The notes under the pieces: model-generated
What the model saw: the letters and a program-made list of their open reading frames with translations, nothing else
The model's database searches: none
What the model was told of the DNA's origin: nothing
NCBI RefSeq assembly: GCF_000012465.1
Contig: NC_007335.2
Span: forward strand, 1,110,001 to 1,142,000
Reading direction: 5' to 3'
DNA: 32,000 nt
Source of the DNA: Prochlorococcus marinus str. NATL2A
Lineage (GTDB): Bacteria; Cyanobacteriota; Cyanobacteriia; PCC-6307; Cyanobiaceae
Part shown: piece after piece, positions 1 to 18,670 of the stretch
Position numbering within the stretch: the first letter of the stretch is position 1
Layout of the letters: each line of letters starts with the position of its first letter
Position numbers and translations under genes: made by a program

Positions 1-925
1 TTACCCTCATTATAATTATCATCCTGTTTAGTATATATATTTATAGAAGCCTCACCATTTTCATCAGTAATAATTGAGCTCCTTCTATAAGAATATGAAA
101 TGTCGCTACTATCTATTTCAGAACCTGTTATCTCCCAGTAAAGGTAAGAAGACATTTTAACAGGATATGTTTTTACTTTAATATTAATTAACTCGGACTC
201 AACATAAGAAGGTTTATTAGTAATGATTTCATAATCATATTGTAGTGGTTGTCCTATAGAAGTATCAATCAAATAAGGCCATACTGTTTCACCAACCTGC
301 TCAGTATTTTTAGCATCCTTGAAAAGCTTTATACGAAGCAATTCATTCCCTTCAGTAGTTAAATCATTGGCAATAACATGGGAGAAAGTAAACGTTCCAT
401 CAGCACCAACTTTCCCGTATCCATCTAATAAACCAGGAGTGAAATCAGTAGAGTGAATGCCAACTCCTGAAAGATTCCAATATAGGATTGTACCCTCAGC
501 TAAGTTTGTAGTTTCAACGGTTGTCGTAAGAGTTTCACCTTCATCAAGATTCAAAGAAGAAGCCGAAATTTTATAGGTTGGAGGTAATGATGTAGAGGTG
601 TCTAAAATAGTAATTAAATCAGATTTAGCAATCTGATTTTCTCGACTTGGATCATTAAAAAGAAAAATATTGAATGTTTCCGTTCCTTCCGTCGCCAAGT
701 CATTAGCAAATTTATGAGATAAAATTATTTGATTATTAACAACACTATCTGATCCAAGCAACTCACCTAAAGAGAGATCAGAATCTTGAATATTTTCCCC
801 TAAAATAGACCAATAAAGAATAGTTCCATCAGGTACATTAAAAGTACTGATATTTGTTGTGAATGAACTACCTTCATCAGATTCTAATGTAGACGTCGAT
901 ATTGAATAAGGCTTCCTTGTTAGTG
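1..925 (-). repeat. In-frame coding repeat: at least 3 copies of a ~110-114 aa module (period about 335-342 nt)
   Basis: The conserved LYW codons recur near 815, 480 and 138. Each copy also carries the ANDL.TEG.E / DxxxxEG tail motif typical of Calx-beta-like or adhesin Ig-like modules. Confidence 0.7.
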
Positions 926-2348
926 GAGGAGAATTATACCAATCATCAGTGAGAGGATTTGCGAAACCAACTACACCACTAGTCAATTTTGCTGCAATAT
1001 CATCACTATGTGTAGTTCCTGAACCCCATGTAATTACTGACCCATCATTTTTTAAAGCTGCAAAAGAAAGTCCTGAAGCATAGATCTCAATGACATCGCT
1101 CTGAAGTAGATGTGTTGGACTTGTACCCCCAAAGTCTATATAGGGTAAATTCGGACCACCTCCCCAAGTAACTACTGATCCATCATTTTTTAACGCAGCA
1201 AAAGCACAATTATTTGGAACAATACTAACAACATCCTTAGTTAAGGAAGAAAAGACTGAAGAGCTATCTCCCCCAGAATCACTCTTGCCCCAAGTAACAA
1301 CTGATCCATCATTTTTTAACGCAGCAAAAGCATATTCAGTTGCATAAATCGTCTTAACCCCACTAGCAAGTAAATTAGCTACTGAACTACTATCTCCTCC
1401 TGCATTTTTACTACCCCATGTAATTACTGAACCATCATCTTTTAATGCCGCAAAAGCATCTCTAGACGTAAAAATATCACTAACTGCCTCTTGTAGTAGA
1501 TGTTTAACATCGCCAAATAAGATTAAATCCTCATGAAAAGTTACTCCATCAATTGGATAAGGAGTATCAAACTCAGAACCGGAAAGAGGTTCTATATCAA
1601 TACATCCCCAAACGACTACTGAACCATCATTTTTTAATGCAGCAAATGCTTGCCCTGATGTGAAAATTTTACTAACGCCTGTACTTATTAATGAGCTAAC
1701 AGAAGAACTATCACCACCATGAGTATCTCTGCCCCAGGTAACGACTGAGCCGTCATCTTTCAGCGCAGCGAATGCTTTATAGGTCGAATAAATAGATTGA
1801 ACATTACTTTTTAAAAAATTAGCTACTGAACTAATGTCTCCACCGTTTCCCTCCTCCCCCCCTGGATGAGTCCAAGCCACGACCGATCCATCATCCTTAA
1901 CTGCAGCAAATGATGAAACAGTTGAATAAACATCTCGAACACTATTATCTAGTTGAGATCCAACAGTGTCTGTATAGTTTCCCCAACTGATAACGACAGA
2001 GCCATCATCCTTTAATGCTGTGAAACCATTTCCAGAAGAAAAAATCTTTATAACACCACTATTAAGTTTTGGCTCATAAGCACTCCAACCCTCTCCACCT
2101 TTGCCCCACGTAACGACTGAACCATCATTTTTCAAAGCAGCAAATGCTTTGTCACTTGAAAAGAGCTGAATTACTCCATTATTAATCTGATCACTAACAG
2201 AACTACTATCTCCACCATGTGCGCTACTTCCCCAAGTAACGACTGAACCATCATTCTTTAAAGCGGCAAAAGCCTGATTATTTCTAAATTCACTATGTGA
2301 TTTTCCACTAAAAGCAAGGATATTTTTTTCTACACTATGGCTTGTCAT
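1..2348 (-). CDS. Giant repeat-rich protein, probably cell-surface or secreted. Only the N-terminal ~782 codons are here; the gene continues past the window start.
   Basis: Missing from the ORF track because it runs off the edge. I translated the minus strand by hand from the ATG at 2348..2346, and the frame stays open to position 3. It begins MTSHSVEKNILAFSGKSHSEFRNNQAFAALKNDGSVVTWGSSAHGGDSSSVSDQINNGV... It contains ten ~40-45 aa repeats with core [AS]FAALK[ND]DGSV[VI]TWG, which resembles an RCC1-like beta-propeller blade. These are followed by at least three ~110 aa modules (..LxEG....T.V.T.N...GT.LYW...G..I...D... ANDL.TEG.E...I.LF.D). No N-terminal signal peptide is visible. Confidence 0.85.
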   Translation of the reverse strand, partial: MTSHSVEKNILAFSGKSHSEFRNNQAFAALKNDGSVVTWGSSAHGGDSSSVSDQINNGVIQLFSSDKAFAALKNDGSVVTWGKGGEGWSAYEPKLNSGVIKIFSSGNGFTALKDDGSVVISWGNYTDTVGSQLDNSVRDVYSTVSSFAAVKDDGSVVAWTHPGGEEGNGGDISSVANFLKSNVQSIYSTYKAFAALKDDGSVVTWGRDTHGGDSSSVSSLISTGVSKIFTSGQAFAALKNDGSVVVWGCIDIEPLSGSEFDTPYPIDGVTFHEDLILFGDVKHLLQEAVSDIFTSRDAFAALKDDGSVITWGSKNAGGDSSSVANLLASGVKTIYATEYAFAALKNDGSVVTWGKSDSGGDSSSVFSSLTKDVVSIVPNNCAFAALKNDGSVVTWGGGPNLPYIDFGGTSPTHLLQSDVIEIYASGLSFAALKNDGSVITWGSGTTHSDDIAAKLTSGVVGFANPLTDDWYNSPPLTRKPYSISTSTLESDEGSSFTTNISTFNVPDGTILYWSILGENIQDSDLSLGELLGSDSVVNNQIILSHKFANDLATEGTETFNIFLFNDPSRENQIAKSDLITILDTSTSLPPTYKISASSLNLDEGETLTTTVETTNLAEGTILYWNLSGVGIHSTDFTPGLLDGYGKVGADGTFTFSHVIANDLTTEGNELLRIKLFKDAKNTEQVGETVWPYLIDTSIGQPLQYDYEIITNKPSYVESELINIKVKTYPVKMSSYLYWEITGSEIDSSDISYSYRRSSIITDENGEASINIYTKQDDNYNEG
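940..2280 (-). repeat. In-frame coding tandem repeat array: 10 copies, period about 115-140 nt with one ~190 nt spacer
   Basis: The plus-strand motif ccatcat(t/c)tt(t)taa(a/c)gc(a/t)gcaaa(a/t)gc recurs near 1039, 1180, 1308, 1431, 1624, 1751, 1888, 2002, 2119 and 2249. It encodes FAALKxDGSV on the minus strand. Confidence 0.85.
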
Positions 2349-2744
2349 TGTTAACTAATAGAAATCAAGAAAAAACAAAGCATATTAATCTTTCAATATT
2401 ACTATTTTGTATAGAAGACTATAAACGAACAAAGGTATCCCTTTAAACCCAAGGGTAATAAATGAGCAAATGAGATGGCTAAGCAGAAAAAAGCAATTAA
2501 TACTTTTATGGGCTACTGATGAACGATTTCTTGCTATTAGCCCTTATTAAATAAAGAAGATTGACAGCCGATTGCAATCAAAGCAAGTGAAACTGACTTA
2601 TTTCAGTACTGATTAATTTAATGCCTCATTGAACTAGATCAACTATTAAAAAGCTAAAAGGTCTCTATGACAGAAGAAAATTATGCCAAAGCCACCCAAA
2701 GATACCCATAGGATCGCTCACTGATCGCTCAGTCTAATTTCCCA

Positions 2745-2782: not shown

Positions 2783-2856
2783 TCGGGGCGACAGGATTCG
2801 AACCTGCGACCTAGTGCTCCCAAAGCACCCGCGCTACCAAGCTGCGCCACGCCCCG
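2783..2856 (-). tRNA. tRNA-Pro (anticodon UGG)
   Basis: The reverse complement is CGGGGCGTGGCGCAGCTTGGTAGCGCGGGTGCTTTGGGAGCACTAGGTCGCAGGTTCGAATCCTGTCGCCCCGA (74 nt). It folds as a cloverleaf: 7-bp acceptor stem, D arm GCGC/GCGC, anticodon loop TT-TGG-GA, T loop TTCGAAT. CCA is not encoded. Confidence 0.95.
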
Positions 2857-3325: not shown

Positions 3326-3800
3326 GCCTTGCAAATAAAGAGACTACGAAAGACAAAAAAGGAATAAAATATTCGAAAATAGTTTTCATTAATTACTACG
3401 AAAAAATTTCAATGATTTTGTCAAAAATCAAAGTTAAATCAACTGGACTTCAATGAGTTGGGATTAATGAAACTCAAAATCCAAACATAAATTTTTATGG
3501 TATCTATAACAAAACCAATAAGAAAAAAAAAAGCTAGTGAAACACATATTTTTAAATGTTACGAATACTAGAGGTAGAGCAATTAAAACCTTTACTTAAA
3601 TTTTTCTATAAATGGGTTAGCTAATTAAAAGCAGTTTTTTTAATTGATTTTAAACTGACTAATTTTTAAAGACTTCTTATTTAAAAATTTAATAGATTCT
3701 TTTAAACACATTTAAAATATTAGTCATAGTTCACTCCTTTTTTATTCACGGAAAGGATAAAAATCTTTCATAATTTGAATATATATACTTAGGCCGGTCA

Positions 3801-4199
3801 GTGAAACTGATACCAAATTTTGCGGAGTTACTGCATGAGGTAAAGCTGCCTGCGGCTGAAAAATGCTTTTCTATTGAAGAAGGCGATGAAAAGTACATCG
3901 AGCAATGGATAAAGGATGGAGAAATAACATGTGAATTGGAAAAACTCTTCAATTGGATAAACCTAGAATACAAATTAAAGAGAACAGATCTAAATGATGA
4001 GGAAAGACAACTTGCTGAAGAAGTAAAAAAGAGATTCCCTGTAGACCAATGGCGTGTTATTAAAATTTTTAGTGATCATCAAAAGAAATATCGTTACTAC
4101 AAAAAGGCAATTGAAGATGTAAAAAGACGAACAACACCTCGAATGAACGAACAAGCAATTATGACCATTTTCAGCCCTGGCTGGGGTATAAATACCTAG
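3801..4199 (+). CDS. Hypothetical soluble protein (132 aa), island ORFan
   Basis: A long ORF in very stop-rich AT DNA with a charged, helical-looking sequence. It has a GTG start, because the frame opens only at 3774 and has no in-frame ATG. I recognise no family. Confidence 0.5.
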   Translation: MKLIPNFAELLHEVKLPAAEKCFSIEEGDEKYIEQWIKDGEITCELEKLFNWINLEYKLKRTDLNDEERQLAEEVKKRFPVDQWRVIKIFSDHQKKYRYYKKAIEDVKRRTTPRMNEQAIMTIFSPGWGINT

Positions 4200-4225
4200 C
4201 GTGGTATAATTACCTATAAGTCGTA

Positions 4226-4333
4226 ATGGATTCTAATCTCATGATCAAAGACTACCCTTTGCTTCCTTTCCTTATTTTTGCAGGAGCATTAGTCAGCACA
4301 GCAACAATTGGTTTGCCTGTATTTGCCGGATAG
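4226..4333 (+). CDS. Mini membrane protein (35 aa), paralog of 8047..8190
   Basis: Hand translation gives MDSNLMIKDYPLLPFLIFAGALVSTATIGLPVFAG plus stop. It is below the ORF-track length cutoff, has one hydrophobic helix, and shares the LPFLxFA...ATIxG core with the 47-aa ORF at 8047. Confidence 0.4.
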   Translation: MDSNLMIKDYPLLPFLIFAGALVSTATIGLPVFAG

Positions 4334-4467
4334 ATAAAAAACACCACAAATTAAATTGGCTAACCTTTAACTTAAAGAAATAAAGTTAAAACAAATAAGT
4401 ATTTGCGGGTATATTTTGAAATTAATAAGAATATATTTTAATAAAGCCCTTTTATTCAGTATTAAAA

Positions 4468-4578
4468 TTATTTTTCTAAAATTGCAGACCAATAATTAAA
4501 AAGAAAATAAGAAGAGTATAAAAACATTCCGAGGTAAACCCAGTTAAGCCATGCTGGACGCTTATTACCGGTAGTCAT
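4468..4578 (-). CDS. Mini membrane protein (36 aa)
   Basis: Hand translation gives MTTGNKRPAWLNWVYLGMFLYSSYFLFNYWSAILEK plus stop. It has an ATG start, sits in a locally GC-richer patch inside AT-rich spacer, and contains one aromatic-rich transmembrane segment. Confidence 0.35.
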   Translation of the reverse strand: MTTGNKRPAWLNWVYLGMFLYSSYFLFNYWSAILEK

Positions 4579-4703
4579 CAACTCTATCAATATATTATCA
4601 ATATATTATACTTATACATATGAGGTTTGACTGAAGGATTCTAAAGCTTTACGTTAATTCTAAAAGTTCAAAACCAAAAGTAATTACATAAGGGGAGGTA
4701 TTT

Positions 4704-5204
4704 ATGAAAAAACGATATAAGTTTCTCCAAAAGCATATGAATGAATTCATCACAACTTTCAATAGTTTAAGAGGAAACATATGGTCATTAAACTTTCCAG
4801 TTTTTCTTTTTGATAGAGATTGGTTTAGGCTCAAAAAAGTCACCCTTTATGATTTAGCCAAAGAACTTAAGCCGGACAACTCTCAAGAGGCCCCTGAATT
4901 AATTCAATATCAACAATTACTCAAAGATGGTCACGAACATTTGCTTGCAATTCAAGAATGTTGGAACGAATTTGGAATAGAAGATTTTCACAGATCCCTT
5001 AGAAACTCGTCTGAATGGAAATCAAAAGGAAACAATGGATGGACATTCAAAAAATACGCTGAACTTCTAACTGGATATAGAAATATTATTGAAAACAAAG
5101 AAATTCGTATACCAATAATTATTTTAGGCAGGAACCCAAATGAAGATCATCAACTTGAATGGATAAGCGAAGAATTCATTTCTGAACTAACATTCGCGGA
5201 TTAA
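4704..5204 (+). CDS. Hypothetical protein (166 aa), island ORFan
   Basis: ATG start preceded by an unusually strong Shine-Dalgarno, AAGGGGAGGT (4690-4699), 4-5 nt upstream. I recognise no family. Confidence 0.6.
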   Translation: MKKRYKFLQKHMNEFITTFNSLRGNIWSLNFPVFLFDRDWFRLKKVTLYDLAKELKPDNSQEAPELIQYQQLLKDGHEHLLAIQECWNEFGIEDFHRSLRNSSEWKSKGNNGWTFKKYAELLTGYRNIIENKEIRIPIIILGRNPNEDHQLEWISEEFISELTFAD

Positions 5205-5234
5205 AAAATATAAATCAGCTCTATAAAAGATCGA

Positions 5235-5432
5235 TCAAGCAATAGTTAAATCATCCGATCTAGTACCCCACTCGGTATCTTCTAAAAGATCAGAGTAGCA
5301 AGAGGCATTTACTAGGTTATATTTTTGAAATTTCCAATCTGAATCTTCGAGATAATCTGAGTACTCAAATGTTTTGGCAAGAAGAGAGAATTCCTTACTA
5401 AAAGGGCACATAGAGATTATGTATTTTTTCAA
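5235..5432 (-). CDS. Small acidic hypothetical protein (65 aa) with an internal duplicated motif
   Basis: Contains YSDYLEDSDW and YSDLLEDTEW about 21 aa apart. The listed start is TTG; an ATG eight codons in (MCPFSKEF...) is an alternative. It is convergent with 4704..5204. Confidence 0.35.
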   Translation of the reverse strand: MKKYIISMCPFSKEFSLLAKTFEYSDYLEDSDWKFQKYNLVNASCYSDLLEDTEWGTRSDDLTIA

Positions 5433-5583
5433 TCATTCACACTACTAAGGATAAAAGCAACTAAATATAATAATTCCTAAAGATTTAGATAGAAAAAATA
5501 AAGTAGCAAAATAAGAAATGACATCCATTTAGATAAAAACCTGTCATAGAATATTAAAACGAGAAAAGGCTTAGTAAAAACGA

Positions 5584-5874
5584 ATGGGTTACATCAAAAA
5601 GGAAAAGGAAGGAGAATTTGATTTCGACAAGCTCCCAGAAGGGATTTATTTCTTTTCAGGTCAAGAGGGATTTGTGAAAATCGAAGTAAATAAAGATGGA
5701 CATCAGTCTTGGGATCTACAAAATTGGTTTGCCTCTTTAGATCCAGACAAAGATGAGGCGCAACATCAAAAAACAATTGAAGACATCAAAAAAAGATTAA
5801 ATGCAGATACTGGAATAATTAATCCTTCTAAAAAACAAGAGAAAAGAAATTTTTTAAACATTTTTAGCCAATAA
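5584..5874 (+). CDS. Hypothetical soluble protein (96 aa)
   Basis: ATG-start ORF with a charged sequence. Its C-terminal motif HQK-TIEDIKKR...NIFS resembles the C-terminus of the 3801..4199 product. Confidence 0.5.
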   Translation: MGYIKKEKEGEFDFDKLPEGIYFFSGQEGFVKIEVNKDGHQSWDLQNWFASLDPDKDEAQHQKTIEDIKKRLNADTGIINPSKKQEKRNFLNIFSQ

Positions 5875-5887
5875 GCAAAATCTAAAC

Positions 5888-6229
5888 CTATTCAAAAAAT
5901 ATAATTACTCGATTTACTGCGAATCCAATTAGAAAATATCTTAACAACGTACACCAAGCATATAAATATACACATTCATAATCTGTCTTTGAGACTTCCT
6001 CTCCTTTATGTATTAATAAAAGATTAAATCTATAATTTGAATTATTTTTAATAATAAGAGCGGCACATAATACTAATGATAGAAATACATTACTATTCAA
6101 AAAGAAAATGAAAGCAATAAAAAAAGAAATATTTGAAATCAAGTCAATTGAGGGAATTAATATAGCAGGCAAAACAAACAGATTAGAGAATATATATACA
6201 ACTCTGCTATGTTTTAGCCAAGAGGACAT
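5888..6229 (-). CDS. Hypothetical integral membrane protein (113 aa, ~3-4 TM)
   Basis: ATG-start ORF with several long hydrophobic stretches. It is convergent with 5584..5874. Confidence 0.45.
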   Translation of the reverse strand: MSSWLKHSRVVYIFSNLFVLPAILIPSIDLISNISFFIAFIFFLNSNVFLSLVLCAALIIKNNSNYRFNLLLIHKGEEVSKTDYECVYLYAWCTLLRYFLIGFAVNRVIIFFE

Positions 6230-6483
6230 GTTCTAAAATATATATATTTATATTTAGCAAACAATTAAGGTTATGGCAATTTTTAAGTCAAAATTGATTA
6301 AAAGAGAAATCAAAAGCCTATAAATAATCTAACCTATTAAGAAAAGGCTGAAGATCATATTCGGAAATAAAAGGTATGAACAGAAATATAAGTTAATTAT
6401 CTAGTACGTCTTTATATATTTTTTTTTCATATATCTAGAAAAGCCATCAAAGAAGTTAAGATTAAAGAGAAATACCTAAAAGA

Positions 6484-6723
6484 ATGAGAATATTTTTGCT
6501 TCTTTCTTTAATCATTTTAACGATTTTTTTGGTTTTCAAAAAAGTTTTTTATTCGGCAAAAAGAAATCTTTTCAAGGATCAAGCTGAATGGTTTAGCAAA
6601 GATATAAAAATAAAATACAGTAAATCGAAAGAAAATTCGACATCAGACAAACATGATAACTATCTAAAAATAATTGCTGACGAATCAAAATTCTATCTAG
6701 AAGAGCAATCAAATCAAGATTAG
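6484..6723 (+). CDS. Hypothetical single-pass membrane protein (79 aa)
   Basis: N-terminal helix MRIFLLLSLIILTIFLVF followed by a charged tail. Confidence 0.45.
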   Translation: MRIFLLLSLIILTIFLVFKKVFYSAKRNLFKDQAEWFSKDIKIKYSKSKENSTSDKHDNYLKIIADESKFYLEEQSNQD

Positions 6724-6779
6724 GAGTACAACCAATTAAATAACCTATAAAAAAATAGAAAGTCTTAAATTAATTAAAA

Positions 6780-7016
6780 ATGTACTATCAATTATTATTC
6801 ATTAATAATATTTATTTCCTTTTAATAAAGGACATTTTACTTGATATGACGATAAATAATCCAATTTTTATTTTTGCCCTAATAACAGTTATTTGGTTCA
6901 TTCCAGGAATTTTAGTTAGAAGGATTAATGAATTAAAACAGATAAAGAAATCAAAAAAGAGACAAGCTGATGCTATTAATAAGCTATATCCCAATTCCAA
7001 AGATTCCTCTAATTAA
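6780..7016 (+). CDS. Hypothetical small membrane protein; the likely true start is the ATG at 6846 (56 aa)
   Basis: MTINNPIFIFALITVIWFIPGILVRR followed by a basic tail. The upstream extension is low-complexity AT-rich sequence. Confidence 0.4.
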   Translation: MYYQLLFINNIYFLLIKDILLDMTINNPIFIFALITVIWFIPGILVRRINELKQIKKSKKRQADAINKLYPNSKDSSN

Positions 7017-7196
7017 CAAAAAATATAGGATTTATTAAGTTTATACTATATATAAACTTATTCTTAGATTATTAGATCTTTTTATAAGTCACTTTTGTTA
7101 ATTATAAATTAAAGCCAAGTCATCAAATAAATATCTTTTAATATTAGAAGTATTATTTTGATATAATGAGTTAATATTAGAAAAAAAAGAGAACCA

Positions 7197-7475
7197 TTGA
7201 TGATTATAAGGAAGCTAGGACAATATGGTGGCTACTTACTTAGTGGAATATTAATTGCATGGCTAATAAATCCAATAGCAGCGCTAGGTTTTCTTGAGAT
7301 CTTTTTTAAAATGACGTTATTAATATCAATTCCCATCTCAGGAGCTTATTTTTTAGATAAGATTATACTATTAAAGTATCAAAAAGTATGGAATATAATT
7401 CTACCTCCGTGGATAATATTAAGTATCTATTTTAGTTTTAGGCTAGTTAAATTACTAGAAAGCCTTATTAATTAA
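7197..7475 (+). CDS. Hypothetical membrane protein (91-92 aa, ~3 TM)
   Basis: TTG at 7197 is immediately followed by ATG at 7200. The sequence is hydrophobic throughout. Confidence 0.45.
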   Translation: MMIIRKLGQYGGYLLSGILIAWLINPIAALGFLEIFFKMTLLISIPISGAYFLDKIILLKYQKVWNIILPPWIILSIYFSFRLVKLLESLIN

Positions 7476-7666
7476 ATAATTTTATCATTTATTAGAATTA
7501 TTGAGGAATTATGTTTTATAAATCGATACTTAATTTATTTGGCGATTATAGATTTCTTCTAATTTAATGAGCCACATTACCCCAAAAAAAGTTTTCCATA
7601 AAATCCTTAGCATTTCTAGAAGTTAAAATATCAGACCTTGTAGAAAGAATTCGTGCTTTATGGATA

Positions 7667-7942
7667 ATGATTAATAGAGTAAAAAATTTGAACAACATGG
7701 TGCTTCCTTTTCTTACTGCAATATTTTTCCCTGATTATGGTTATCAGGGTATTCCTTGGGACTTGTACTTACTTCATTTTTTCTTCTTTGCAATTGTAAT
7801 TCCATTTCATGTAATTATTTTTGCTGCCCGTAGTGCTCAGATCGTCAAGCCAAACGGAGTTAAGGACTGGCTTAAGTGGGAATCCAAGGCAACTAAAGAC
7901 GACTTAGATTCAATGTTTCCAAACGATTTCCCTACCGCTTAA
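7667..7942 (+). CDS. Hypothetical membrane protein (91 aa, 2 TM)
   Basis: ATG-start ORF with two hydrophobic segments and an acidic C-terminal tail. Confidence 0.45.
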   Translation: MINRVKNLNNMVLPFLTAIFFPDYGYQGIPWDLYLLHFFFFAIVIPFHVIIFAARSAQIVKPNGVKDWLKWESKATKDDLDSMFPNDFPTA

Positions 7943-8046
7943 CTCTCTAAAAAGCCTTTTAAAAATGTCCGAATTTATCAAGGTGCTACAACTTCATTAA
8001 ATTTGGGCAATTTTAGGTTTATATAGATACCTGCATCTAAAAAAAA

Positions 8047-15309: not shown

Positions 15310-15330
15310 TTACAAAGATAATTCTAGAAA

Positions 15331-16095
15331 TTATGTCGGCAAATTATCAAGACTAAACCTATAGCCATGCTGGCGAACAGTTGTAATTCCTCCGCCATCA
15401 CCTAGACCTGCTTGTTCCAGTTTTCTTCTAAGCGTCAAAACCTGCGTATCAACTGAGCGAGGACCACCGCTAAACGGTGGCCAAGCCATTCGAAGCAGCT
15501 CATGACGGCTTCTTACCATGCCAGGCGGCATCAACAAGGCACACAACAAAGCAAATTCCCTTGGACTTAGTTCTACAGGTTTCTCGCGCAAGGTGACCTG
15601 TCTGAGAAGAAGATGAACCTCAAGAGGACCAACGGCGACACGTTCTTGTAAACCAATTCTTCCTCTCTTAAGTAAAGTCCTGCACCTTGCAGCTAGTTCT
15701 TCCAAGCCAAAAGGTTTCCTTAAAACATCATCAGCGCCATCATCTAAAAGGCCTACAACAGGTTCAACTCCTGTTCTTGCTGTTAGAACAATCACTGAAC
15801 ATCCCAATTGTTGTGCCAGTCGGAGAGCAGAGCTTTTTTCTAATAGCTCTGCACTAACTAATAAATCAGGTGATTGGTCTCGACATAGGTCAACGGCCTC
15901 CTCAGCTGAACCTACTGCTGCGGCCAGCTGTCCATCTTGCCTAAGCCTTTGAACCAAAACAGTTCTGAGAGTTGGATGTGGTTCTACAACAAGCACCTTG
16001 GATGGTGATTGTGTGGTTGCTTGAATAGGAGAAGAACCTGTGGGAGATCCTTGGATTTGCTCAGTGGCAAGCTGATCTGCAGGTATTAATGTCAC
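15331..16095 (-). CDS. OmpR/PhoB-family response regulator with a degenerate (pseudo-)receiver domain; orphan, with no adjacent kinase
   Basis: 254 aa, GTG start. The C-terminal winged helix is LSPREFALLCALLMPPGMVRSRHELLRMAW...SVDTQVLTLRRKLE...TTVRQHGYRF. The receiver keeps VLTAR and RKPF, but has VVEPH instead of VVDDD/VVEDE and PDLLVSAELL instead of PDLxLLDxxLP. GC content is markedly higher than in neighbouring genes. Confidence 0.9.
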   Translation of the reverse strand: MTLIPADQLATEQIQGSPTGSSPIQATTQSPSKVLVVEPHPTLRTVLVQRLRQDGQLAAAVGSAEEAVDLCRDQSPDLLVSAELLEKSSALRLAQQLGCSVIVLTARTGVEPVVGLLDDGADDVLRKPFGLEELAARCRTLLKRGRIGLQERVAVGPLEVHLLLRQVTLREKPVELSPREFALLCALLMPPGMVRSRHELLRMAWPPFSGGPRSVDTQVLTLRRKLEQAGLGDGGGITTVRQHGYRFSLDNLPT

Positions 16096-16183
16096 AACTT
16101 AGAAAAGTAGACCCTTAGACTGGAAAAGATATTAAAGCAAACTGTTCGCTGACTATCAAGAATAGTCTCTGTCTTAGCAAACC

Positions 16184-16453
16184 ATGACATCTTTTGATTC
16201 TCCAGAGAGCATAAAACACTTCCAATCAATTTGTGATGCCTGTCAAGAGTTAACAAGCCGATACTATAGTCCATCTGAGCTAAGGATCTATGCAGATGGA
16301 TATTTGCATTCCCTCAGGAATTGCAAGCGATTAGACTCTAGGGATCAAGAGAAGTTAGAAGCATTAATTGATAGATGGATTATGGATCCTTCAAGCTTTG
16401 TTGGTCCTGATGGCGACATTAATAACCTCTTTTTCAAAAAAGAACAAGGATAA
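16184..16453 (+). CDS. Small conserved-looking hypothetical protein (89 aa)
   Basis: ATG-start ORF transcribed divergently from the response regulator. The sequence is soluble and includes CDAC. Confidence 0.6.
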   Translation: MTSFDSPESIKHFQSICDACQELTSRYYSPSELRIYADGYLHSLRNCKRLDSRDQEKLEALIDRWIMDPSSFVGPDGDINNLFFKKEQG

Positions 16454-16470: not shown

Positions 16471-16794
16471 TTATGAAGCTAGTGCAATTTCTAATTTTTC
16501 TTTCAATTCTCCAGAGTTATACATGCTTATCAAAATATCTGACCCTCCCATAAATTCTCCTTTTAAATAGACTTGGGGTATTGTCGGCCAATTTGAATAT
16601 TCTTTTATACCCTCTCGGATTTCCATATCAGAAAGGACATCAAACGTTTCAAAGCTCATCCCCAATGAATTTAGAATTTGAACAACATTGTTAGAAAAAC
16701 CACATTGTGGCATCAATTTATTGCCTTTCATAAAAACAAATATTGGTTTTGAATTAATTAAGCTTTCAATCTTTGAGCGAGTGTTGGAATCCAT
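16471..16794 (-). CDS. grxD: Monothiol (CGFS-type) glutaredoxin, Grx4/GrxD family
   Basis: 107 aa. The active site is PQCGFSNNVVQILN, with WPTIPQVYLKGEFMGGSDI downstream. Confidence 0.93.
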   Translation of the reverse strand: MDSNTRSKIESLINSKPIFVFMKGNKLMPQCGFSNNVVQILNSLGMSFETFDVLSDMEIREGIKEYSNWPTIPQVYLKGEFMGGSDILISMYNSGELKEKLEIALAS

Positions 16795-16804
16795 AACGAG
16801 AAAA

Positions 16805-17041
16805 TTAATGAGGTGTTGAGGTTTTCAAGGCCAAAGCATGAATTGTTTCGGTTCTCAATTCATTTTTTAACGCACCATAAACAAGTTGATGTTGCTGTAC
16901 AAGAGATAAGCCGGCGAATTTTGCAGATACTACATTTACTTCAAGATGATCACCTCCTCCCATATCTATTACATCAATTTGAGCATCTGGAAGTGATTGC
17001 TTTATTAAAAGAGTAACTTCTTTGGCTGTAATCATTTTCAA
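16805..17041 (-). CDS. bolA: BolA-family protein
   Basis: The sequence [31 protein letters not shown]...IHALALKT matches the BolA fold signature. The likely start is the ATG at 17035. It lies 10 nt upstream of grx, which is the classic BolA-Grx pairing. Confidence 0.85.
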
Positions 17042-17113: not shown

Positions 17114-17962
17114 TTATCTTCTACCAACAGCTAACAAAGCCGATTGCTCGGCACTTCTCATACTTTTGGAAAGTTCAATATTAAAGTCATTTGTAGGTTG
17201 CTTAAAATCCCTCGAAATAATTATTGGTTTAGAGAAACAAATTGATGCAGATCCATAAAACTTTGGGATAACGTCACTATAGGCCAAACCTACAGGAACA
17301 ATTTTAATTTCCAATCCTTTGTTAGAGGCTAGTTGAGCTAAGCGAATCAGGCCTTTTTTAAGTTTTACAGGCTCGCCAAGTCGATTTATCTTTCCTTCTG
17401 GGAATACAACTAATTGCTGACTTGAAATCAACAAATCCACTGCATATCTAAGAGTAGTTAAAGAAGGTCTTCCTTGATCAATTGGGAAACAACCCAACCT
17501 GTTTAAGAACCAACCTTGTACCCCTCTCATTTCTGATCTGGTGACCATGTATCTACAATCTCTATTTGTAATCCTTCTCCCAGCAGCCATAGTCAACATC
17601 AAAGCATCCCATCTAGATCTATGAGTAGGAGCAAGTACAACAGAACCACTTAAAGGTAAATTTTCACCACCAATAACTATTCTTCTTCGAAAAAAATTGT
17701 TCAAAGCAATATCCTGAGTCGCAACCATAGCCAAGCGACTCCAGAAAGGATCAACTCCAAGGCAGATTTTTTTTTCTCTATGAAGAAGGGGCAAAAAATC
17801 CCTCTTTATCAAACTATGTAATGAAGTTAACTCCGAAAGCTTTATTATTAACAGTTGGACTGGGCAGTTACTCCAGCGGCTAAACCTTATTTTGCTTTTG
17901 ATGAATACAATCAAAGTATATTTTAAATACCTATGGCAAGTCTTGGCGTAAACATTGATCAC
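17114..17962 (-). CDS. plsC: 1-acyl-sn-glycerol-3-phosphate acyltransferase family (PlsC-like)
   Basis: HX4D motif [11 protein letters not shown] and FPEGK motif VVFPEGKI are present. The maximal ORF (GTG at 17962) overlaps pdxJ by 30 nt on the opposite strand. A TTG at 17812 ([10 protein letters not shown]...) would give ~232 aa and no overlap, and is probably closer to the true start. Confidence 0.85.
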
Positions 17963-18670
17963 ATAGCAAATGTCCGAGAAGCTCGTAAGACATTTGAACC
18001 TGACCCAGTAAAAATGGTTCTTTTAGCGGAATTAGGTGGTGCTGACGGAATAACTGTTCATCTAAGAGAAGATAGAAGGCATATTCAAGATAGAGATCTA
18101 AATCTTCTAAAAGAGACTGTACATACTCGACTAAATCTTGAAATGGCTGCAACTGAAGAAATGACTTCAATAGCACTTAATCTCAAGCCAGATATCGTTA
18201 CATTGGTTCCTGAAAAAAGGGAAGAGGTCACGACAGAAGGAGGACTCGATGTCATTAAAAACAAAAGAAAATTAAAGGAAATAATTCAACGTCTGTCAGG
18301 TGAGGACATTCCAGTTAGCCTTTTTGTTGATCCAGTCCAAGCTCAATTAGAAAATTGCGCTGAAGTAAAGGCCGCCTGGGTTGAACTACACACAGGTAAA
18401 TATGCAATCACAAAAAAAAAGGCAAGAGATTTGGAATTATCCATTCTCAAAGAGAGCACAGCTAAAGCAAAATCATATGGATTGAGAGTAAACGCAGGGC
18501 ATGGATTGACATATCAAAACGTTGAACCAATTGCAGCAATTGAAGGGATTGAAGAATTAAATATTGGCCATACAATTATTTCTAGAGCCCTTTCAGTAGG
18601 TCTATCTCAGGCAGTAAAAGAAATGAAAAGCCTAATTATCAATCCAAGAAAAGACAACTTCTTACTTTAA
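17933..18670 (+). CDS. pdxJ: Pyridoxine 5'-phosphate synthase
   Basis: 245 aa. [15 protein letters not shown]...EPDP...[20 protein letters not shown]...GHGL...ELNIGH are PdxJ signatures. Confidence 0.95.

Follow-up and report, generated by a model that had tools for sequence, protein, structure and literature searches.

We analysed a window of 32,000 nucleotides from Prochlorococcus marinus str. NATL2A (contig NC_007335.2, positions 1,110,001 to 1,142,000), a genome of the low-light I (LLI) type, and examined a gene at positions 15331..16095 of its minus strand, which starts with GTG and encodes an OmpR-family regulator of 254 amino acids with an aspartate-less receiver. Pfam places a Response_reg domain (PF00072) at residues 34–137 (46.2 bits, cut-off 30.2) and a winged-helix DNA-binding domain, Trans_reg_C (PF00486), at residues 172–247 (15355..15582, minus strand; 56.4 bits, cut-off 26.2). 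Together with an AlphaFold2 (AF2) model and its Foldseek matches, this gives the architecture of the OmpR/PhoB class, with a receiver fold followed by a C-terminal winged helix. Strain MIT 0916 and several single-cell genomes encode proteins 98% identical to this one. The best-scoring named NCBIfam model, PhoB (TIGR02154), reaches only 115 bits against an equivalog cut-off of 296.2, ruling out this identity, and RpaB (91.9 bits, equivalog cut-off 330) and NblR (73.8 bits, cut-off 300) are likewise ruled out. The gene is part of the series trmFO, crtH, regulator, DUF6761, monothiol glutaredoxin, BolA, acyltransferase, pdxJ and recCBD. Pfam found no HisKA or HATPase_c domain among all the large open reading frames (ORFs) of the window, and the regulator is an orphan within these 32 kb; this bears out the original prediction for the gene, made from the sequence alone, that no histidine kinase lies nearby.

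The pseudo-receiver domain spans residues 34–146 (15658..15996, minus strand), as judged from the AF2 fold, superposition and conservation. Its active-site residues were assigned by MAFFT alignment to E. coli PhoB, using a manually entered reference sequence, and independently by phmmer against the Protein Data Bank chains of MtrA and BaeR, and each position was then surveyed in 121 representatives of the picocyanobacterial family. Both methods align the phospho-acceptor, D53 of PhoB, with Ala82, whose GCA codon is read directly at 15850..15852 (minus strand), and Glu83 adjoins it; the family has Ala in 118 members, Ser in three and Asp in none. Of the acidic pair that binds Mg2+, E9 of PhoB is kept as Glu38, whereas D10 is replaced by Pro39 (15979..15981, minus strand), a proline present in 121/121 members, as is the following His40. 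The conserved Thr/Ser (T83 of PhoB) corresponds to Thr105, which is Thr in 120 of the 121, and the conserved Lys (K105) to the invariant Lys127 (121/121). The original prediction had claimed precisely this pattern, a receiver that has lost its acceptor Asp while the Thr and Lys positions persist, and it holds throughout the family; it had overlooked, however, the switch tyrosine (Tyr102 of PhoB), which is Val124 here and Val in all 121 members. Because the same residues recur across the family, the active-site substitutions are fixed features rather than signs of decay. The domain is a pseudo-receiver of the aspartate-less receiver (ALR) subclass as defined in PMC12632262 and PMC4395418, namely, a computationally recognisable receiver without the phosphorylation-site Asp, and, judging from the residues found there, canonical phosphorylation at the acceptor site would be impossible.

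The receiver fold is nevertheless retained. The AF2 model has a mean predicted local distance difference test (pLDDT) score of 81, rising to around 90 in the receiver, where five strand-helix units form the (beta-alpha)5 fold. Its Foldseek matches are OmpR-family chains, and the receiver superposes on those of PhoP, DrrD, ArlR and VicR with a root mean square deviation of 1.7–2.1 Å; helix alpha3 is about seven residues shorter than in PhoB. Regulators of the OmpR class dimerise through their alpha4-beta5-alpha5 surface (PMC12632262), and the corresponding segment, GADDVLRKPFGLEELAARCRTLLKRG, is almost invariant in the family. Lacking the phosphorylation site, the regulator must be switched in another way. 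A phosphorylation-independent regulator, as originally proposed, is most likely in view of the missing acceptor and of this conserved face; it would act as a dimer formed through the alpha4-beta5-alpha5 surface, and such a dimer would bind repeated DNA sites.

The receiver is preceded by an extension of 33 residues (15997..16095, minus strand), rich in Ser, Thr, Pro and Gln and predicted to be disordered. Residues 1–28 have pLDDT values below 50 in the AF2 model, and the tail is only 6–36% identical between lineages, compared with 79–93% for the two domains. RefSeq models of several orthologues with 221 amino acids (e.g. WP_225866420.1) omit the tail and begin at an internal GTG, that of Val34. 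To this and the following comparisons we applied a set of 80 orthologous picocyanobacterial loci from genomes ranging from 29% to 70% GC, and all 80 have an uninterrupted upstream frame. A GTG codon 33 codons before the core, opening the motif MT-(S/L)-x-P, is conserved in low-light Prochlorococcus and in marine Synechococcus, and an ATG start is found 26 codons before the core in high-light strains and 15 codons before it in Cyanobium. We consequently ruled out the start of the 221-residue models, given that the internal GTG is absent from several loci and that the upstream start is conserved. The comparative evidence favours the longer form, in which the tail is translated, and the open frame and conserved start codon indicate that the S/T/Q/P-rich extension described in the original prediction is real.

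The gene also differs from its surroundings in composition. Its GC content is 0.469 (359/765) in a window of 0.335, while the 16 other long ORFs of the window average 0.345 (standard deviation 0.042, maximum 0.410; z = 3.0 for the regulator). The compositional aberration that the original prediction had deduced from hand counts is thus borne out, and we reproduced those counts exactly (64/120 G+C at 15421–15540 and 58/120 at 15841–15960). Separating the codon positions confined the excess to the first two: GC1 is 0.639 (z = 3.2) and GC2 is 0.467 (z = 2.0), whereas GC3, at 0.302 (z = 1.0), is native and falls inside the range of the neighbours (0.19–0.34). At the protein level, the 23 Arg and 6 Lys agree with the original counts, as does the scarcity of Asn (1) and Ile (6); R/(R+K) is 0.79, versus 0.40 in the neighbours, and the summed fraction of Phe, Tyr, Met, Ile, Asn and Lys (FYMINK) is 0.083, versus a neighbour mean of 0.320 (z = −4.0). 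Two explanations had been put forward for this bias: a high-GC relative as the source of the gene or as its partner in gene conversion, and unusually strong constraint. Comparison of low- and high-GC picocyanobacteria speaks against the former and shows the latter to be correct. Over the 80 loci, the GC3 of the regulator spans 0.18 to 0.85 in step with the host genome, while GC1 (0.60–0.78) and GC2 (0.44–0.50) are nearly constant; flanking genes, by contrast, vary with the host at all three positions. In high-GC relatives the regulator has about the same GC content as its flanks, for instance 0.62 versus 0.58 and 0.65 versus 0.64. The excess of G+C is therefore a by-product of a frozen protein, rich in Arg, Gly, Ala and Pro, in a genome drifting towards A+T, and the gene looks aberrant only because the proteins of its neighbours drifted to AT-rich codons and this one could not.

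Sequence searches retrieved 476 homologues of the regulator at E ≤ 1e-5, the best 120 of which are 79–98% identical and are all picocyanobacterial wherever the source gives a name. In an exhaustive search of 1.84 billion representatives clustered at 50% identity, there was one full-length cluster, followed by fragments and then by a drop to ≤43% identity. All picocyanobacterial genomes examined contain the regulator (AAQ00128 in strain SS120 and CAE21272 in MIT9313), and the order recC-pdxJ-plsC-bolA-grxD-DUF6761-regulator-crtH-trmFO is kept in all Prochlorococcus clades, marine Synechococcus and Cyanobium. The regulator is also the best-conserved gene of this block, with 80–86% identity overall and 83–90% without the tail; recC, plsC, bolA, DUF6761, pdxJ, crtH and trmFO reach 46–70%, and only grxD (77–86%) comes near. 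Identity between picocyanobacterial lineages is 79–87% in the receiver, and residues 147–250 of the protein from this Prochlorococcus share 90–93% identity with freshwater Cyanobium-like sequences, with 81 of 104 positions invariant among the 121 cluster representatives. Pfam scans of the window found no mobile-element genes flanking the regulator, and no cyanophage copies of it were found in viral contigs. We thus see neither foreign synonymous composition nor broken synteny nor mobile neighbours. The gene is vertically inherited in picocyanobacteria: its host-tracking GC3, its fixed GC1 and GC2 and the conserved gene order rule out horizontal transfer and indicate very strong purifying selection.

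A rearranged relative of the receiver was found on a 2.4-kb metagenome contig (L112:777-1805; ERZ8733618 NODE_38175), where a DnaQ/RNase_T-type exonuclease is fused to a receiver derived from the regulator in a protein of 342 amino acids. This receiver has 73–77% DNA identity to high-light Prochlorococcus genes over some 340–380 nucleotides; the fusion is devoid of a DNA-binding domain and has Asp-Asp in place of the Ala-Glu of the family at the acceptor position. The fusion occurs on two short low-GC contigs, beside an acidic hypothetical protein, and could be either a decoy, carried by a mobile element, for the regulator of the host or just a rare rearrangement.

Outside the family, the best full-length matches of the exhaustive search are an unrelated protein of 499 amino acids (124.5 bits) and three cyanobacterial proteins (P0144, P0148 and P0149; 117.5–123.7 bits). 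The P0144 family, here called the sister family, spans cyanobacterial orders, and its 119 best matches are 63–75% identical. Its genes are likewise divergent from DUF6761 (loci L082-84 and L109), and two distant lineages (L110 and L111) contain the full bolA-grx-DUF6761-regulator block, which is thus conserved across cyanobacteria. Of 120 sister-family members, 119 retain the acceptor Asp, and Tyr102 and the Lys are kept as well; none of the 120 has Asp at the position of D10, where G, A, N or S is found. With the second acidic pocket residue missing, the family would already qualify as a pseudo-receiver by the same definition. Several lines of evidence connect this family with Rre37 (sll1330) of Synechocystis, the orthologue of Anabaena NrrA, which is induced by nitrogen depletion and has NtcA bound at its promoter (PMC4295605, PMC8042125, PMC5714215). 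Homologues of Rre37 occur in all 17 thermophilic cyanobacteria surveyed (PMC9953108). Moreover, the N-terminus MNPVYI, deduced from a published Rre37 primer, fits the sister-family start M-x-x-V-C-I-Q-I, which is not matched by the nine other Synechocystis OmpR-type regulators with listed primers (PMC4361706). We consider it quite probable, by this indirect comparison, that the sister family is NrrA/Rre37, an activator of glycogen and sugar catabolism that depends on NtcA. That the regulator of the window is its positional orthologue seems likely too, if slightly less so, as it is divergent from DUF6761 and beside grx and bolA, in a block that we equate with the nrrA locus by inference. By descent, the regulator may then control glycogen and sugar catabolism.

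We found no description of this regulator in the literature searched, including that on atypical regulators of Prochlorococcus and on Rre37. Prochlorococcus also has an abundant, uncharacterised orphan regulator of the PhoB type, PMT9312_0717, which is said to lie five genes from a DedA gene and whose levels in metaproteomes from the Pacific run counter to phosphate (Held et al. 2019, PMC6365647). Identity with this protein was set aside because no DedA-like gene was evident when the five neighbours on each side were examined, by Pfam scans in the window and by similarity to the window genes or ORF reading in a high-light II (HLII) locus; the two are probably different genes.

The regulator and DUF6761 share a divergent promoter region of 88 bp (16096..16183), which holds a TAATAT −10-like box; a scan of the locus for consensus promoters and terminators gave nothing usable. 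Sister-family genes have a canonical NtcA box, GTA-N8-TAC, 40–100 nucleotides upstream (L082:644, L109:3901, L110:3926 and L111:3930), and in marine Synechococcus and Cyanobium (L032, L036 and L070) the sequence GCA-N8-TAC-N22/23-TAGCGT occurs at a fixed position, some 162 nucleotides upstream of the core. The NtcA box upstream of the regulator thus decays stepwise from other cyanobacteria to marine Synechococcus and Cyanobium and then to LLI and high-light Prochlorococcus, where it can no longer be recognised. From these sequences, the amount of regulator may still depend on NtcA in Synechococcus and Cyanobium, a dependence apparently lost in Prochlorococcus. Downstream of the box, TGACA-N7-TG(T/A)TA is conserved in three of the four loci from other cyanobacteria, and several Synechococcus show the box, then TGCCA and, six bases on, TGGCA or a looser variant; this repeated element may be an autoregulatory site.

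The neighbour across this promoter, DUF6761 (16184..16453, plus strand; PF20547, 109 bits), encodes 89 amino acids with a CxxC motif (C17, C20). It adjoins the regulator, always divergently, in all 80 picocyanobacterial loci bar one short contig with an upstream flank of 32 bases, and the pair also occurs in four lineages of other cyanobacteria. The CxxC is present in 78 of 79 picocyanobacterial loci, where four other cyanobacteria have T-D-x-F. The regulator, likewise, has acquired cysteines: Cys71, Cys99, Cys138 and Cys185 are each found in 115–121 of the 121 members, and their counterparts in the sister family are F, S/A, V and Y, respectively. Beyond DUF6761 are the genes for the monothiol glutaredoxin (16471..16794, minus strand) and BolA (16805..17041, minus strand), both identified by Pfam and belonging to the conserved block. 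We compared the window proteins with those of other cyanobacteria and of other picocyanobacteria (HLII Prochlorococcus, marine Synechococcus and Cyanobium). The respective identities are 66–69% and 79–81% for glutaredoxin, 48–58% and 56–61% for BolA, 34–37% and 60–66% for DUF6761, and 35–37% and 83–90% for the regulator core. The regulator and DUF6761 therefore share a jump in divergence on the picocyanobacterial stem, which glutaredoxin and BolA do not show. We infer that on this stem the regulator diverged sharply, to about 36% identity, losing the Asp and the Tyr and gaining four Cys, and then froze. This shared jump, together with the new Cys and the CxxC, suggests that the regulator may function jointly with DUF6761 and that phosphorylation may have given way to a thiol or metal input. 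The activity of the regulator would probably be set by its amount, by a partner or by both, and the first candidate for a partner is the divergently transcribed, co-diverging DUF6761 protein, which is modelled with low confidence as a three-helix bundle (pLDDT 66).

Several known systems resemble the regulator in part. Like NrrA/Rre37 (all4312, sll1330), it is an orphan of the OmpR type; provided that the sister family really is NrrA, the two have the same locus position and NrrA/Rre37 had already lost the second acidic pocket residue, and an NtcA-type box persists in the Synechococcus relatives of the window gene. It differs in that identity is only about 36%, the acceptor Asp has changed to Ala, the switch Tyr to Val and a Ser to Thr. 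Four Cys are new, helix alpha3 is reduced in length, a disordered tail precedes the receiver, and the NtcA box is lost in this Prochlorococcus. PhoB and RpaB, canonical OmpR-family regulators that these genomes also encode, have the same fold and provide the best-scoring named models, but possess the phospho-acceptor and the Mg2+ ligand that are absent here. NblR of Synechococcus elongatus keeps its Asp and, from its low score, belongs to another family. Nonetheless, it is an orphan of the OmpR type from a cyanobacterium and works without being phosphorylated (PMC12632262). Dimerisation and DNA binding in the unphosphorylated state are reported for HP1043 (HsrA) of Helicobacter pylori and ChxR of Chlamydia trachomatis (PMC8345958, PMC5253667, PMC3960148). 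These two orphans have the same domain architecture as the regulator and a receiver that is likewise degenerate, and they too are very highly conserved proteins of small, streamlined genomes; the HP1043 structure 2hqr is among the Foldseek matches (ca. 23% identity); however, there is no specific sequence relationship, the lineage and the substitutions differ, and constitutive dimerisation is presumed here. RitR of Streptococcus also combines an aspartate-less receiver with a winged helix and has a conserved Cys in a family that lost phosphorylation (PMC12632262), and its chains 5u8m, 5u8k and 5vfa were matched by Foldseek with 21–24% identity. The redox-sensing Cys of RitR is, however, a single residue in the linker, and a redox role for the cysteines of the present regulator is hypothetical. 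Aspartate-less orphan OmpR regulators are therefore already known, including HP1043, ChxR, RitR and GlnR, as is action without phosphorylation in NblR (PMC12632262, PMC4395418), and the picocyanobacterial family is a new, uncharacterised addition to them.

Taken together, the evidence makes it probable that the product of the gene is a core transcription factor, vertically inherited among picocyanobacteria, which belongs to the OmpR/PhoB class, has an aspartate-less pseudo-receiver and is orthologous by position to NrrA/Rre37. A number of observations weigh against parts of this reading. The regulator passes no NCBIfam model; it is no closer to the sister family (0.30–0.34 identity in the receiver and 0.41–0.42 in the DNA-binding domain) than to some generic OmpR regulators; and an NtcA-like box is not recognisable in the promoter of the window, nor in those of LLI or high-light Prochlorococcus. 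A neighbour-joining tree never joined the regulator and the sister family (0/200 bootstraps), a test that is weak on a branch as long as the picocyanobacterial one and hence uninformative or negative. The sister family is itself tied to sll1330 and all4312 indirectly, rather than by direct sequence comparison, and the 24 matches from a scan of metagenome contigs with the Rre37 forward primer were all due to chance. Similarly, dimerisation, DNA binding and the absence of phosphorylation are deduced rather than observed, and phosphorylation may occur at other residues, e.g. on the Ser/Thr-rich tail. Part of these observations would be explained if the ancestor of picocyanobacteria had exchanged NrrA for a different OmpR-type regulator at this locus, considering that the tree and the identities favour NrrA no more than other OmpR regulators. 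NrrA is also reportedly conserved in beta-cyanobacteria, which counts in the same direction. We nevertheless think replacement unlikely. The newcomer would have needed to preserve the position, the orientation, the divergent pairing with DUF6761 and the promoter, including the NtcA-type box that survives at class II distance from the −10 box in Synechococcus and Cyanobium relatives; besides, DUF6761 diverged in parallel, and the sister-family representatives are, with the unrelated 499-residue protein, the best full-length outsiders.

Two further alternatives concern the origin and the functionality of the gene. Transfer from, or conversion against, a high-GC relative would fit its deviant GC content (z = 3.0) and an amino-acid make-up typical of high-GC genomes, but it is very improbable in view of a GC3 that is native and follows the host, constant GC1 and GC2, the same gene order from high-light Prochlorococcus to Cyanobium, a GC content similar to that of the flanks in high-GC relatives, and flanks free of mobile-element genes; a recent transfer is already refuted. 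Even less credible is a decaying or functionless two-component remnant of genome streamlining. The lost catalytic residues, the lack of a partner kinase in the window and the shortened helix alpha3 would be expected of such a remnant, but not a gene that tops its neighbourhood in conservation (80–86% against 46–70%, equalling or exceeding grxD), with 81 of 104 DNA-binding-domain positions invariant, an intact frame in 80/80 loci and active-site substitutions that are themselves fixed. A last possibility, compatible with vertical inheritance, is that the regulator and DUF6761 form a thiol- or metal/iron-sulfur (Fe-S)-responsive switch that took over control after an NrrA-type regulator lost its acceptor; the four Cys and the DUF6761 CxxC would then control dimerisation or DNA binding in place of phosphorylation, and the neighbouring glutaredoxin and BolA might relay the redox or Fe-S status. 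This is consistent with four near-invariant Cys that are F, S, V and Y in the sister family, with a CxxC gained by DUF6761, with the joint jump of these two proteins but not of glutaredoxin and BolA, with the adjacency of the four genes across the phylum, and with the redox-controlled aspartate-less regulators RitR and Hp1021 (PMC12632262). Yet we hold it unlikely, as a hypothesis drawn from sequence; the DUF6761 model is weak, and since these genomes tend to keep their gene order, adjacency to grx and bolA proves little. In addition, Cys138 replaces a Val/Ile at a position expected to be buried from general receiver topology, and may be structural. Finally, Rre37 and thioredoxin showed no interaction in an E. 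coli assay (PMC4361706).

Other features of the window were noted in passing. The crtH gene and the regulator are convergent, with 21 bp between their stop codons (15310–15330), and no terminator-like hairpin was found in this gap; their transcripts may therefore overlap. The longest acyltransferase ORF (17114–17962, minus strand) overlaps by 30 bp, divergently, the start of pdxJ (17933–18670, plus strand), although its true start may be further downstream since its first ca. 95 residues lie outside the Pfam match (residues 96–225). Farther away, a tRNA-Pro gene (2783–2856, minus strand) is followed by a stretch of 23–31% GC (3500–8000) with only short ORFs, which have no Pfam matches where tested and several of which look hydrophobic by eye; this arrangement resembles a tRNA-flanked hypervariable genomic island. 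At the left edge, a large ORF of at least 784 amino acids with RCC1-like repeats (1–2354, minus strand) continues beyond the window.

Beyond the original prediction, our analysis adds the stepwise loss of catalytic residues, an evolution by burst and then freeze, the co-changing CxxC neighbour and the conservation of the bolA-grx-DUF6761-regulator block across cyanobacteria. For genome scans, the lesson is that a GC anomaly limited to codon positions 1 and 2 reflects constraint, not foreign DNA. Most of its housekeeping neighbours are less conserved than the regulator, which offers a clean test case for how pseudo-receivers are switched. Prochlorococcus has only a handful of regulators, and each conserved one therefore probably runs a major programme. 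Should the present one correspond to NrrA/Rre37, it would fill the place of the glycogen and sugar catabolism regulator missing from alpha-cyanobacteria, and it would also be a natural case of stepwise degeneration, in which the Mg2+ pocket was lost first and the acceptor Asp and the switch Tyr afterwards. If the cysteine switch, unlikely as it is, proved true, it would link the redox or iron status reported by glutaredoxin and BolA to carbon-catabolic expression in the most abundant phototrophs of the ocean.

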